A stretch of DNA of 64,000 nt, from NCBI GenBank assembly GCA_964016885.1, contig OZ024756.1:30504001-30568000 (forward strand). The letters are read 5' to 3'. Source of the DNA: Eledone cirrhosa (lineage: Eukaryota). Below are positions 4,189-63,511 of this stretch, piece by piece. Under the pieces are notes generated by a model. The model saw nothing but the letters and a program-made list of their open reading frames with translations, made no database searches and was not told the origin of the DNA. Every line of letters begins with the position of its first letter. Positions within the stretch are counted from its first letter, which is position 1. The position numbers were made by a program, and so were the translations under genes.

Positions 4189-4358
4189 AATATATAAGAA
4201 CAAAAGATGGTTAAAAGAGTTCCATGTATTTTATTAACTCTTTTAACCATCTTTTGTTCTTATATATTATGTATACTCCAGTCCTACAAACTGTAGAGTG
4301 CTTCTTATCCGATATCTGTATTGCTTTATTGTACTACAATAAAACTCACCCCCTACAT
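4189..4358 (+). mobile_element. Fold-back element, family B (HHR-bearing family), (TA)n-flanked
   Basis: Inverted arms 4189-4221 / 4236-4268 plus tail ending CTCACCCCCTACAT; homologous to 23886-24330, 48700-48955, 63352-63510. Confidence 0.8.
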
Positions 4359-4375
4359 TATATATATATATATAG

Positions 4376-4569
4376 ATAGGAACCAGTAAGACCCCGACGG
4401 CTGAGCTCAAGCCGTTTCGACGGCTAATTCTGGACTGAATTAGCCGTCGAAACGGCTTGAGCTCAGCCGTCGGGGTCTTACTGGTTCCTATTACCCACTC
4501 TACTACCCTAAGTATTGAGTACTTTGGTGCGTTATGGTCCACTTGGTTCCTTACACATTTCCTTCGTTA
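4376..4569 (+). mobile_element. Fold-back element, family A, (TA)n-flanked
   Basis: Perfect 55 bp inverted arms 4376-4430 / 4437-4491 with loop TGGACT, plus ~78 bp tail; carries the 3' half of an HHR (GAAAC-GGCT-TGAGCTC-AGCC-GTC). Confidence 0.85.
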
Positions 4570-4589
4570 TATATATATATATATATATA

Positions 4590-4968
4590 ACCAAAAGTTT
4601 AACAAGGTTCATTGATTAATCAATGAATATAGTTTTACAATAGATTAGAAGCACTCAACAAAGAAGTTTTCTGGAGTTATTAATATTAATTCAAAATATT
4701 AATAAATATAGACATTCATGGGATCAAATATATTTTATTATATATATTTCGGAGGTACTGTGCTATTTCCTCAGTACGTCCTCATCAGATAAAATAAATT
4801 GATGTCTGACATACCTCAACTGTGCTCAATTCCAAGACTGGAATTGAACCATCAGCACATACATATATATATATTATATATATTAATATATACAGTATCT
4901 TTGAAATATATATAATAAAATATATTTCATCACATGAATGTCTATATTTATTAAGATTTTGAATTAAT
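4590..4968 (-). mobile_element. Fold-back element, family G
   Basis: 4686-4760 is an inverted homolog of 4892-4968; tail 4590-4685 abuts (TA)n; contains an HHR. Confidence 0.7.
4733..4794 (-). ncRNA. Type I hammerhead ribozyme motif (family G)
   Basis: TTTTAT-CTGATGA-GGAcGTACTG..CAGTACcTCC-GAA-ATATATAT-A-ATAAAA: stem I 6 bp, stem II, palindromic stem III, AUA cleavage triplet. Confidence 0.8.
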
Positions 4969-5787
4969 CTATTTCAAAATTAATCTATCTCAAAATTAAT
5001 CTATCTCAAAATTATTTTTGAAAAGCATCAGAAATGCGCAACCGGTAAAAACTTAAAACTAAAACTGAATACGAACCAATACTTATTACTAATTTATACT
5101 TATTCCTAATTAAATTATTTTTCACTGGGAAAAATTTGTCAGCATTTTCTTTTCCTTTTACTAAATGCGCATAATATAATACATGGAACTCTTTTAACCA
5201 TCTTTTGCTCTTATATATTATATATATATATATATATATATATATATATATAATGTATGTATACTGTAGAGATTAGACAATTTTGAAGAGAAGTTAGCGC
5301 TATACATAATATGATAATATGTAAAACTTCATTATTCAATACGGTGACATTCTCGCCATGAGTTTATTTGATCCAGACTAATTCGGGTGGTTATTTGGTT
5401 ACTACTTTAATTCTAGTATATTGACATGTATAGATAAATATACAAGGACTGGAGCATACTATGCACTCACATATATACCGACCCATGCATAGGCACCCAC
5501 CCATATATATATATATATATATATATATATATATATATATATATATATATATATAAATAAATATATGTGTATATATATATATATATATATATATATATAT
5601 ATATATATTATATGTATATATATAGAGAGATATAGACATATATATATATATATATTTATATATATATATAATATATATAAATATATGGTTATATATATAT
5701 ATATATATATATATTATATATATATATATATATATATATATATATATATATAAATATATGGGTTTATATATATATATATATATATAT

Positions 5788-5843
5788 AGAATTAGCCGTC
5801 GAAACGGCTTGAGCTCAGCCGTCGGGGTCTTACTTACTCCTAT
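5788..5843 (+). mobile_element. Solo arm of family A inside (TA)n
   Basis: gaattagccgtcgaaacggcttgagctcagccgtcggggtcttacttactcctat. Confidence 0.8.
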
Positions 5844-6937
5844 ATTTATATATATATATATATATTTATAGACATATATATGTATAGACATATATATGTA
5901 TGTATGTCTACATATGTATATATACACTCAAACATATATACAGTACCATACGTCCATAATGGTGAATATTCTGGATGTTCTGTGATATGAGTTGAAAGAT
6001 TTCAAACGAATTTCCGTGTTATTTCTGTCAGAAAATCATTATTGTTTCCCAAGATGGCAGATACAAAATAAAAGACACAAGCTGATGCAAACACACAAAA
6101 CGTCTCTCTCCCCCCGTCTCTCTCTCTCTCTCTCTCTCTCTCTCTCTCTCTCTCTCTCTCTCTCTCTCTCTCTCTCTCTCTCTCTCTCTCTCTCTCTCTC
6201 TCTCTCTCTCTTTATCTAATATATCTATCTATCTATCTATCACTCTCTCTCTAACCCTCTCTTACTCTCACGCACCTACATATAAATACGTAGGAACATA
6301 CATATAATCGATTCTCTCTCTCAATATATATGTGTTTGTATATACATATAACTGTATATATTAATATATTAATATATATATTAATATATATAGGTATCTT
6401 TATATATTAATACATGTACATACATATACGAGTATATATATTACTAATACATATCTGTATATATTAACATATACCCATATTATTATGTTTATATATATAT
6501 ATATATATATAATTATATATATATATATACATATAAATATATAAATATGTATATATATATATATATATACATATTTATATATATATATATATATATATAA
6601 TATATATATAATTATATATATATATATATATATAATTATATATATATATATATATATATATAATTATATATATATATATATATATATAATTATATATATA
6701 TATATTATATATATAATTATATATATATATATATATATATATATAATTATATATATATATATATATATATCTTATATATATATATATATAATTATATATA
6801 TAATATATTATATATATTAATTATATATATATTATATTATATATATATATATATATATATATATATATATATATATAATTATATATATATATATATATAT
6901 ATTATATATATATATATATATATTATATATATATTAT

Positions 6938-7137
6938 NNNNNNNNNNNNNNNNNNNNNNNNNNNNNNNNNNNNNNNNNNNNNNNNNNNNNNNNNNNNNNN
7001 NNNNNNNNNNNNNNNNNNNNNNNNNNNNNNNNNNNNNNNNNNNNNNNNNNNNNNNNNNNNNNNNNNNNNNNNNNNNNNNNNNNNNNNNNNNNNNNNNNNN
7101 NNNNNNNNNNNNNNNNNNNNNNNNNNNNNNNNNNNNN
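6938..7137. other. Assembly gap (200 N)
   Basis: Run of N. Confidence 1.
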
Positions 7138-61460: not shown

Positions 61461-62457
61461 TGGTAACTAGCCCAGTTACCATAGAATCGCATGTGGTTTT
61501 TTGCAAGATGAGATTTGTTTTTGATTTCTGGCTTGTAATTTGATTTGAGGGAGATTTTATAGAGGATCTCTAGTTTGTAGATTTGGTAGCGAGTTGTAAT
61601 TTGTAGCATGACCGCATATAGGCATTCTTCTTAGCAGCATATGAATTTAAATTGTCTTTTGATTTGGTGTCTATTTCTAGCTCGTCTAGACACCGTAGAG
61701 AAATATGTAATTTGAGAAAGATTTAATAGCGATTTCTAGGTTGTAGAGTGACTGCGAAGAGGAAGTATGTGATTTGAAGGCGAGTTGATAACTATTTCTA
61801 GCTTGAAGATTGACCGCATAGAAGCTTCATTCTTGGCACTACATTGGATTTTAAATTGTCTTTTTTAGTATGTTTAAACAATGTTTGGTTTATTTTAAGA
61901 TAGTTGACACCATTCATTCGCAATCCTGCTCATGTTTCTCCGAACAGAAACAAGGAAAATAAAGGAAATAAAGATGCAAAGCAAGGCAAGGAAGGATGGA
62001 AAGAAGAAAAGAAAGAAGGAGCGAACGAAGTGAGGAACAGAGAAAAGAAAAAAAGAAAAAGAAGGAAAAAAGGAAAGACGGAACGACCGCGCTAACAAAA
62101 TAAATACATTTTTCACCTTGCTGGAGGCTATTTGCAGTGAATGGAATTAATAGATTCTGCTGTCAGTCACGTGGTATATCCTAAAATAAAGCTATAAGTC
62201 TCTGGTGATTCTGCAGTATACTAATAATAAATGGCTTCGAATTTTTTATTGATACAAGACTTCACATTGTTAGACAATGCACACACTCATTCACAAACAC
62301 ACAACGAAATCATGTATATATATACATGATTATATATATATATATATATATATATATATATATATATATATATATATATATATATATATATATATATATA
62401 AATATATATATATATATATATATATATATATATATATATATATATGTATATATATTT

Positions 62458-62646
62458 AATTGGTCGTTTTGGAAGCATCAACAATGCAGAGGGGTAAATC
62501 TCCGGACTGATGGAAGCGAAATCCGAAATATAGGGACAATTAAATCGCTTCCAAGCTAACTCTATCTCGTGTTATTATTGTTGAGGCTTACAAAACGACC
62601 AATTTTATTATTCCACAATGTTTCAAGCAAACTTCAACACTCTCCT
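62458..62646 (+). mobile_element. Fold-back element, family J
   Basis: AATTGGTCGTTTTGGAAGCATCAACAAT / ATTGTTGAGGCTTACAAAACGACCAATT plus tail; internal GGA..TCC-GAA-ATAT-A-GGGAC resembles an HHR 3' half. Confidence 0.65.
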
Positions 62647-62659
62647 ATATATATATATT

Positions 62660-62960
62660 TGTTTTGCAAGGTTTTTGATATGATATCGTGTTTTGAAACA
62701 AATATTGCTATATTTGGGGTGGCTCTTATTTTTATAATATTGCCAGAAATAATAAGAGAACACACTCACTGTTTGGTCTGGGTTGGTTTTCGCTTCTGTT
62801 TCATTTATATCTCTTTAGTTAATTTATCTGGCAATCAATGTTTATCATTGATTGACCAACGGTTAAAAATACAGATATGAATATATATATATAGTCTATC
62901 AAAAATCTTTCGTCACACATCTGAGACGTGACACCATCGGTGGTACTATTATGTTTCCTC
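62660..62960 (-). mobile_element. Longer, diverged family E copy
   Basis: Homologous to 50191-50302; includes a decayed D-like HHR (GTCAC..GTGAC-GAAAGA). Confidence 0.6.
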
Positions 62961-63165
62961 CCATCGTATTGTAATGCCTGGCGCATCAAGCGTTAACGTA
63001 ATATATCACTTCCATATACTCTACCGATTGTGTGGGTTATTTCTATTTACCTTTTACATACACACATACACACATATACATATATATATATATAGGAGAA
63101 ATAGGAGAAAGTGACAAAGATGAAAACAAAACAAAGGTAGAAGGGTTACCGTAGTGGAGATTTAA

Positions 63166-63201
63166 TCCCAATATTTCGGGCTCACGCCCATCAACGGGGG
63201 A
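63166..63201 (-). ncRNA. Core-mutated minimal hammerhead motif (family L)
   Basis: TCCC-CcGtTGA-t-GGGC-gtga-GCCC-GAA-ATAT-T-GGGA; stems intact, two core substitutions. Confidence 0.55.
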
Positions 63202-63388
63202 CAGTTCCAAAATGGGGGTGGGGAACAGGCTAAGCCGGAGAAAGTTGTGATGTCGTTAAAACAGGAATGCCATTAAATATATATATATATATATATATAT
63301 ATATATATATATATATATATATATATATATATATATATATATATATATATAATATAAGATCAAAAGATGGTTAAAGGAGTTCCATGTA

Positions 63389-63455
63389 TTTTATTATGCG
63401 CATTTCAAAAACAAACATCATCATGCAATAATATTTGTGTTTTCATCAGATAAAA
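63389..63455 (-). ncRNA. Type I hammerhead ribozyme motif (family B) in element 63352-63510
   Basis: Reverse complement matches 48851-48917. Confidence 0.82.
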
Positions 63456-63511
63456 CAGGAGAACGTGATATGAAAGCTAAAGAACACTTGTGGATAGTGC
63501 AGTTTTAAATC

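Follow-up and report, generated by a model that had tools for sequence, protein, structure and literature searches.

Background

Craig et al. 2021 (PMC8557442) list an octopus member of the Hydra clade of Penelope-like elements (PLEs), Hydra-1_Obim, with a hammerhead ribozyme motif (HHR) and a preference for (TA)n. Frangieh et al. 2024 (PMC11167929) describe a PLE protein that cuts and extends both strands, with two reverse transcriptase (RT) start sites bounding the tail, a predicted dimer, and an HHR that is dispensable in vitro. The promoter of Drosophila virilis Penelope lies within its pseudo-long terminal repeat (pLTR) (PMC2377424), and TATA and initiator (Inr)-like motifs have been noted in a rotifer pLTR (PMC3846280). 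How PLEs make head-to-head, one-tailed insertions is stated as unresolved (PMC8557442, PMC11167929). Here we analyse 64,000 nucleotides (nt) of Eledone cirrhosa (contig OZ024756.1, positions 30,504,001 to 30,568,000), hereafter the window (G000:C17:30504001-30568000; genome 3.0 Gb; 30% GC, microsatellite-rich), in which a first-pass annotation had noted several families of short, HHR-bearing fold-back elements living in (TA)n arrays.

We consider it probable that these repeats are pLTR pieces of endonuclease-positive (EN+) PLEs inserted in (TA)n, and that they likely result from an RT/GIY-YIG protein cutting both strands of a TA run and starting cDNA synthesis from each end on a single uncut RNA, at one or other of two fixed positions. 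The repeats have coding parents in families A-F, I and J, two 3' end sites, a one-tail rule, TA-rich ends, peaks of inner ends and an excess of an extra G. On balance, we also lean towards a more specific view, namely that the short inverted pLTR insertions usually called "5'-truncated" are largely full-length copies of the capped leader at the 5' end of the element mRNA, with one ribonucleoprotein (RNP) using two sites on one RNA, running to the cap twice and having the two ends joined.

Insertion rules of the fold-back repeats

The 3' ends are bimodal in every family, with two end sites separated by 33-111 nt, and TA-like bases follow both sites on the template wherever this is readable. TA-rich DNA follows 319 of 388 arm ends against a background of 4.5%, which bears out the (TA)n boundaries described by the first-pass annotation, and the fold-back layout with a one-sided tail that it also proposed is seen in all 10 scoreable pairs of the window. 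Among 196 head-to-head pairs, 13 were unscoreable; 176 of the other 183 have one tailed arm, five have two and two have none, the one-tail expectation under independent site choice being one half. The rule held in 40/40 scoreable pairs from unselected DNA, which comprises the window and 98 evenly spaced 10-kb stretches (979 kb); 12 of these 40 pairs, all following the rule, belong to a sample fetched after the rule had been stated.

The two arms of an insertion also appear matched. Same-family joints account for 190 of 194 head-to-head joints, with four cross-family, and within-pair divergence is about half or less of the between-pair value in eight of nine families. The arm reaching further 5' is the untailed one in 63 pairs and the tailed one in 19 (equal in 95); the corresponding counts in unbiased DNA are 17, 3 and 20. 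Among these families, B is the most frequent in unselected DNA, with 31 arms in 979 kb.

Relation to coding Penelope-like elements

The count of about ten families agrees with the first-pass annotation, although the letters used here (A-G, I, J and M) are our own and have no one-to-one match with the earlier ones. The PLE link suggested by the first-pass annotation is borne out: eight of the ten (A-F, I and J) adjoin RT/GIY-YIG open reading frames (ORFs) elsewhere in the genome in the expected orientation, which makes them pieces of coding PLEs. For family A, extension of copies led to locus L035, an inverted pair of full elements, each with the order pLTR, HHR, tail, ORF, 3' untranslated region (UTR) and pLTR; the ORF encodes RT and GIY-YIG with frameshifts, the tail corresponds to the initial ~90 nt of the internal region, and the element measures ~3.7 kb. 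The HHR-bearing repeat flanks the ORF on both sides in L035, and an upstream pLTR is also present in C (L038) and F (L236). The other ORF links are B (L164, L207, L216), C (L038, L049), D (L204/L208), E (L340), F (L236, L225), I (L060, L074, L102) and J (L023, L072, L210), where the link of family E consists of one ORF-bearing locus plus two with a common 3' UTR. Frameshifts or stops are present in every long copy seen. A single ORF with RT and GIY-YIG, HHR-bearing pLTRs, and an inverted 5'-short copy with a one-sided tail, as expected of EN+ PLEs, were all found. In L035, the family A ORF also has an Asn/Ser/Thr-rich stretch of ~75 residues between the RT thumb and the linker, which recalls the N-rich inserts of rotifer PLEs.

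Families were assigned to clades by protein motifs and layout. A-type proteins gave no Pfam match (Hydra-type proteins being unrecognised by Pfam) but have 228 homologues at E<=1e-20, with PF00078 in two among the 120 matches listed. The CxCX5C linker reads CNCRIKNKC in A, CNCLNKEAC in C and CNCRNPESC in D, and is damaged in two B copies; the DKT motif is SDKT in A, C and F; and the RWK position reads RWR in C and F and RWT in A. There is no CCHH, and CxxC and CxH are placed around a conserved E and N (CNLCLNE...INRR...CLH in A, CNLCSEE...LNKK...CKH in B, CNLCNTE...INKK...CLH in E and CKLCLNE...INLR...C in D). Families A-F thus appear to carry the Hydra-clade motifs where the region is covered. 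Families I and J have a CX4CxxC linker (CIDKKCITC in J, CTNRKCIIC in I), C..C and HxxxH (CCHH) within the endonuclease (EN), and a stop codon followed by the pLTR. Their CX2-5CxxC linker, CCHH and C-terminal EN suggest a Neptune/Nematis type, and the RT of family J, as read by eye, appears to hold an insertion between motifs A and B'.

These links alter how the short copies should be described. The first-pass annotation had seen no RT or GIY-YIG ORF in the window, but the last ~45 GIY-YIG codons are present in both arms of the fold-back at 52220-53353. Its view of the elements as non-autonomous and mobilised in trans suits family G, which is ORF-less and head-to-tail, and possibly the unlinked family M; it does not suit A-F, I and J, which are terminal repeats of coding elements and whose short copies are probably by-products of autonomous families. 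Likewise, "heavily truncated" describes many arms, but not A, B, C and E, whose inner ends are non-random and lie at Inr-like sites with an extra G.

For family M we found no ORF link and recognised no HHR; its best 40 near-identical copies were scored. The candidate families H, K and N (15893, 56140-56695 and 48560-48632) had no match in 600 kb. At L032:4663-8425, adjoining a family A copy, are frames that we take to resemble a Helitron Rep/helicase.

Family G has a unit of ~490 nt, and its own 3' part precedes the unit start in 16 of 19 non-window loci, a count favoured by a query that spanned the unit boundary. No ORF joined to the unit was seen in the loci examined. As an ORF-less head-to-tail unit with the type I HHR features, family G may be classed as retrozyme-like. 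Separately, the whole 10 kb of locus L320 (G000:C28:110000001-110010000) is filled by a tandem array of ~422-nt units with one type I HHR each; the motif occurs as single copies in several other sampled stretches, and the array is of the classic retrozyme-like kind.

Inner ends of the arms

Inner ends peak at fixed distances from the ribozyme cut: -116/-65 in A, -41 in B, -44 in C, -165 in D and -114 in E. In a held-out sample, 7/11 inner ends of B and 7/12 of C were at the peak. The ribozyme cut itself was considered as a stopping point and rejected: of the 397 arms of families A-D, just 5 terminate 4 nt or less from it. The peaks lie on an Inr-like A, which is in CCAGATT in C (TATAAA 32 nt upstream), TCACT in E (TATAAA 30 nt upstream), TTAGTCC within ribozyme loop II in B, and TCATATG in A.

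A non-template G precedes the Inr A in 41/62 arms of families A, B, C and E, compared with 25/139 at neighbouring positions. The G position is C or T in long copies, and none of 61 read-through copies has G there. A conservative subset, without duplicate junctions and loci from junction-bearing queries, gave 19/28 versus 8/62, and G stands at the Inr A in 29/42 cases versus 18/101 at other A-start break points. The extra G is at the sense-strand start, on both arms in some insertions (L043, L134, L276), and single arms that meet TA runs or unrelated DNA halt at the same sites, some with the G (L338, L319). Reading the peaks as splice acceptors found no common upstream exon among the junctions listed. 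Untemplated 5' G in L1 and SVA has been ascribed to cap copying (PMC3287187); for PLEs, we found no cap-derived G or twin priming in the open literature (subscription papers, Repbase and Dfam not covered). The extra G offers a modest new mechanistic clue.

A possible route of insertion and its alternatives

The insertions could be accounted for as follows. RNA polymerase II would start at the Inr-like site within the pLTR (with TATA ~30 nt upstream in C and E), the source RNA being transcribed either from tailed solo copies or from a full element's 5' pLTR. An RT-endonuclease, likely dimeric, would then act as one RNP, with a single capped, uncut RNA serving as template for priming at both cut DNA ends; the upstream-primed cDNA would go first and be displaced by the other. 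As the priming sites would be just 100-300 nt downstream of the start, both cDNAs would soon reach the capped 5' end, where the cap may be copied as an extra base at run-off, and the two cDNA 3' ends would be joined by short microhomology into a head-to-head insertion. Long copies would require RNA reading through to the second pLTR plus the tail, and the hammerhead would be mostly uncut in the copied RNA. Family G would follow the same two-site rule with no ORF, likely copied in trans from circular or multimeric RNA.

If true, the genome would contain ~10^5 sterile, promoter-less leader fossils that map the transcription start of each family, and the hammerhead would stay uncut, with the main start of family B even inside the ribozyme. 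It would also explain a genome strewn with ~55-70 hammerhead-shaped motifs per Mb without the ribozyme needing to cut. The many natural products with strict rules (one tail, an untailed arm that is usually longer, an extra G) yield direct predictions for the existing in vitro system.

Several points weigh against this interpretation. Most loci came from copy searches that returned the best 40 copies per query and thus favour young, intact copies. The one-tail rule has seven exceptions, one of them the internal pLTR pair of L035. In family J, the arms of one pair are no more alike than arms of different pairs; just 62/159 pairs have the partner as the nearest arm; and gene conversion may contribute to the similarity of arms within pairs. 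The Inr and TATA calls are matches to what we take to be the consensus motifs, and the start sites are predicted. The G excess was first spotted in E, although it holds without E; family A has two peaks, the second with G in just 5/11; families A and B lack a clear TATA box; and a scan of D, F, G, I, J and M for the extra G found no clean peak. Finally, the anole enzyme primed without homology in vitro (PMC11167929), whereas the ends here meet TA-like template bases.

Some of the same observations would suit ordinary random 5' truncation from the 3' pLTR, where the peaks come from RT pausing or palindromic microhomology and the G from a joining bias. Truncation together with inverted copies is the published description (PMC8557442), the A and D peaks lie on CATG/CATATG palindromes and the C peak on GAWTC, and the inner ends of F, I and J are scattered, which indicates that ordinary truncation also occurs. 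As a general explanation of the short copies we nevertheless think it unlikely: single arms running into TA runs or unrelated DNA share these end points, in some cases together with the G (L338, L319); the G is confined to the Inr A, with few cases at other break points that start with A; and the C peak marks the 5' boundary of stem I, where copying has already passed through the structure. Snap-back self-priming, whether the template is the first cDNA or an antisense transcript, has been proposed for rotifer PLEs (PMC3846280) and would fit both the common palindromic junctions and the greater likeness of arms within a pair than between pairs. But a copy of the tailed cDNA cannot outreach its template 5', yet among the 82 unequal pairs it is the untailed arm that is longer in 63, which disfavours such copying, and the extra G is found at the sense-strand start on both arms in L043, L134 and L276; we hold this route to be very improbable.

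We likewise give little credence to the idea that all families are independent, non-autonomous retrozymes spreading via self-cleaved circular RNAs. The ORF-less head-to-tail unit of family G and the 422-nt tandem HHR array filling L320 are of that kind, but eight of ten families adjoin RT/GIY-YIG ORFs, and the arms seldom end at the cut (5/397), crossing it without re-entering the tail. The least probable origin, which we put at close to nil, is from miniature inverted-repeat transposable elements (MITEs) or other TA-targeting terminal inverted repeat (TIR) DNA transposons, in spite of the hairpin shape and the TA flanks. The first-pass annotation had named this identity as a possible refutation of the PLE link, and the outcome was negative: arm ends are unequal, with two different fixed end points and a variable centre, and the arms are pLTRs of RT-encoding parents. 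A MITE/TIR identity, which calls for matching inverted termini at fixed, equal ends and for no link to an RT, is thus refuted. Cutting of both strands with two-site priming on one uncut RNA remains the reading that we prefer.

Hammerhead motifs

A strict type I descriptor gave 8 matches in the window versus 0.00-0.11 in 100 block-wise dinucleotide shuffles of it. Of the 14 HHR sites named by the first-pass annotation, 11 pass a relaxed descriptor that tolerates a 10.1/11.1 mismatch or one extra base, and 28978, 28686 and 15893 fail it. The first of these is a family C copy broken off within stem I, in a family that itself bears an HHR. Site 28686 belongs to family G and has both core boxes, a stem I of GCTTT/AAAGC, and a 5-nt insert ahead of stem II that is conserved in relatives. 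Site 15893 was rejected as an HHR family: besides failing the descriptor, it folds no better than shuffles (z +0.51) and is its own sole match genome-wide. Sites 4733 and 9934 sit in two 5-kb blocks that are 98.6-100% identical and flank an N gap, and are probably a single locus assembled twice, so that 10 distinct descriptor-passing motifs would remain in ~59 kb. The blocks themselves (1700-6900 and 7100-12200) look like a probable false assembly duplication.

In the 979-kb sample, the relaxed descriptor gave 69 matches, of which one tandem array accounts for 15 and at least one is spurious, against 0-1 in 20 shuffles. The resulting density is ~55-70 HHR motifs per Mb, with a genome-wide bootstrap range of 128,000-327,000; the density in the window, put at one per 4-5 kb in the first-pass annotation, is ~3 times the genome average. 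That annotation had also claimed that stems pair in families of differing sequence, and this gained some support: in a set of 18 A/E/F-type motifs, pairing holds in 95.7% of cells, and both sides change in 10 of 20 pairs (8 of the 10 in stem II), a level reached in 0/500 shuffles. The rows are related and pattern-picked, which inflates the result, so this covariation is supportive only. Core boxes, three stems, a NUH site and covariation, as expected of type I HHRs, are all present, and ribozyme activity is a prediction from sequence.

Descriptor matches exist for families A, C, D, E and F. In family B, the first core box is the non-canonical CUGAGAA in 44/44 reads (overlapping loci included), and a ~45-nt loop II holds the main inner-end peak (L164:1580-1682 and other long copies). 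This core may reflect relaxed selection or a true variant; the main start would leave the CUGAGAA box outside the RNA. A further Hydra-type family, X (L034:5700-5760, L080, L213), has a terminal hammerhead-like motif with CAGAAGA as first box, and its short copies also begin at GATTC. In another Hydra-type family (L087:4400-4600, L092:4400-4600), the HHR stem II region is ~100 nt and the core box is duplicated in the 3' UTR.

Composition of the window

The repeats of the window are as follows, with the strand given where one applies.

4192..4356: short family A fold-back, untailed arm 4192-4236 (-), tailed arm 4236-4356 (+); both arms end at or after the cut site, no complete HHR
4376..4567: family B fold-back, untailed arm (-), tailed arm (+); HHR represented by its 3' half alone
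4590..4968: family E fold-back, tailed arm 4590-4826 (-); complete type I HHR, core 4788, cut after 4739
5000..5216 (+): family M piece joined to a family A 3' end; no ORF link found and no HHR recognised for M
9392..10415: repeat of the 4192-5216 cluster with HHR core 9987; probably a false duplication spanning the N gap at ~6935-7137
12357..12550: family B fold-back
15432..15650 (+): family D untailed arm; complete HHR, core 15550, cut after 15594
15893..15975 (-): rejected motif 15893, with a core box, unconvincing stems and no second copy in the genome
23888..24332: diverged family A fold-back; HHR core 24232 on +
28597..28963 (-): piece of family G, the ORF-less ~490-nt head-to-tail unit; HHR core 28762, long stem II
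28980..29108 (+): family C tailed arm, cut inside stem I
44785..45115 (-): single arms of family I and family B
47070..47270: family C fold-back; two complete HHRs, cores 47123 (-) and 47145 (+)
48703..48957: family A fold-back; complete HHR on +, core 48857, cut after 48911
50191..50578: family I fold-back, then family B fold-back
51024..51315: family B tail arm and family J untailed arm
52220..53353: fold-back of family J, 1.1 kb; each arm with ~45 C-terminal GIY-YIG codons, 52667-52795 (-) and 52822-52956 (+), and a mutated HHR
53753..53964: family B fold-back
54940..55217 (+): family J untailed arm; HHR core 55012
57622..57891 (+): family B arm beginning near the cut site, then family J tailed piece
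58541..59056: family F fold-back; two complete HHRs, cores 58729 (-) and 58955 (+)
62661..62885 (-): diverged family I tailed arm
63349..63514 (-): family A untailed arm; complete HHR, core 63449

A general repeat search of the window was dominated by microsatellites. An abundant dispersed repeat of ~190 nt, presumably a tRNA-derived short interspersed element, lies at 12-294, 14543-14736, 18138-18723 (a 3.1-copy tandem at 18138), 19295-19632, 27238-27431, 35684-35909, 38865-39002, 48061-48506 and 59288-59475. A 159-amino-acid frame at 42385-42864 (-) resembles what we take to be the C-terminal part of an RTE/R2-like non-LTR ORF. Small fold-backs at TA runs are present at 29400-29535, 19245-19282 and 16074-16183, the one at 29400 without a match in a 600-kb sample, and 54087-54623 is a tandem repeat of five ~107-nt units.

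An Rfam scan of the window gave no hammerhead among the 150 of 420 matches listed, which were hairpin or microsatellite matches below the gathering score. When the family C junction was searched in sequencing runs, no RNA data set was among the matches listed. A search for A-to-G hypermutation found 1 of 735 alignments skewed and none in the window, where heavily edited copies would be hidden by the identity and end filters; the family J arm at L143:2965-3096 has A-to-G in 6/8 differences. For tRNA-like heads, relaxed ARAGORN gave at least 3 matches in at least 2 of 10 references, among the matches listed.

Comparison with described systems

Families A-F share with the Hydra clade (PMC8557442) a C-terminal GIY-YIG, the CxCX5C linker, DKT, the lack of CCHH, and CxxC and CxH around E and N, as well as the canonical type I HHR, (TA)n targeting, the inverted copy and the one-sided tail. 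Hydra-clade HHRs often have T-T at 10.1/11.1, as does family C. In contrast, at least six such families touch one window here, whereas the table of that paper has one octopus Hydra family; tails are 72-111 nt here and 30-40 bp there; and family A at ~3.7 kb, several HHRs with long stem II regions (30-70 nt) and the change of RWK to RWR or RWT are further differences. None of the HHR rows examined in its supplement equals these families. Families I and J resemble Neptune/Nematis PLEs (PMC8557442) in having the RT, then a CX4CxxC linker and GIY-YIG with CCHH, and then a pLTR with HHR; they are assigned to the two clades jointly, and the RT of J differs by the apparent insertion between motifs A and B'.

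The closest mechanistic parallel is Poseidon PAc of the green anole (PMC11167929), with two RT start sites bounding the tail, both strands cut and extended, an uncut RNA template and an AT-rich target. That work saw no strand difference in start site, and in the text examined neither a one-tail rule per insertion nor run-off at the RNA 5' end is described; the start sites are within the ORF there but upstream of it here. The minimal HHRs of metazoan PLEs (Cervera and de la Pena 2014, PMC4209133) likewise come in many families per genome, with a palindromic helix III, an extra base before stem II, and opposite-strand pairs 100-700 bp apart, and lie mostly in truncated PLEs. Their number is 2,000-9,000 per genome, compared with ~55-70 descriptor matches per Mb here, and the CUGAGAA core of family B (44/44 reads, overlapping loci included) sets it apart from them. 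Family G and the L320 array are similar to metazoan non-LTR retrozymes (PMC7229834; bioRxiv 10.64898/2026.07.22.740005), which are ORF-less, 400-500 nt long and head-to-tail, with a type I HHR and a proposed dependence on PLEs. Instead of long arrays, however, family G forms partial dimers and fold-backs, whose ends follow the two-site pattern of PLEs.

Overall, the clade, layout, hammerheads, (TA)n targeting and an octopus member have already been published. The value of the present families is in mechanistic detail: they make up no new system, belong to a known clade, and are further members of described PLE clades together with one retrozyme-like family.

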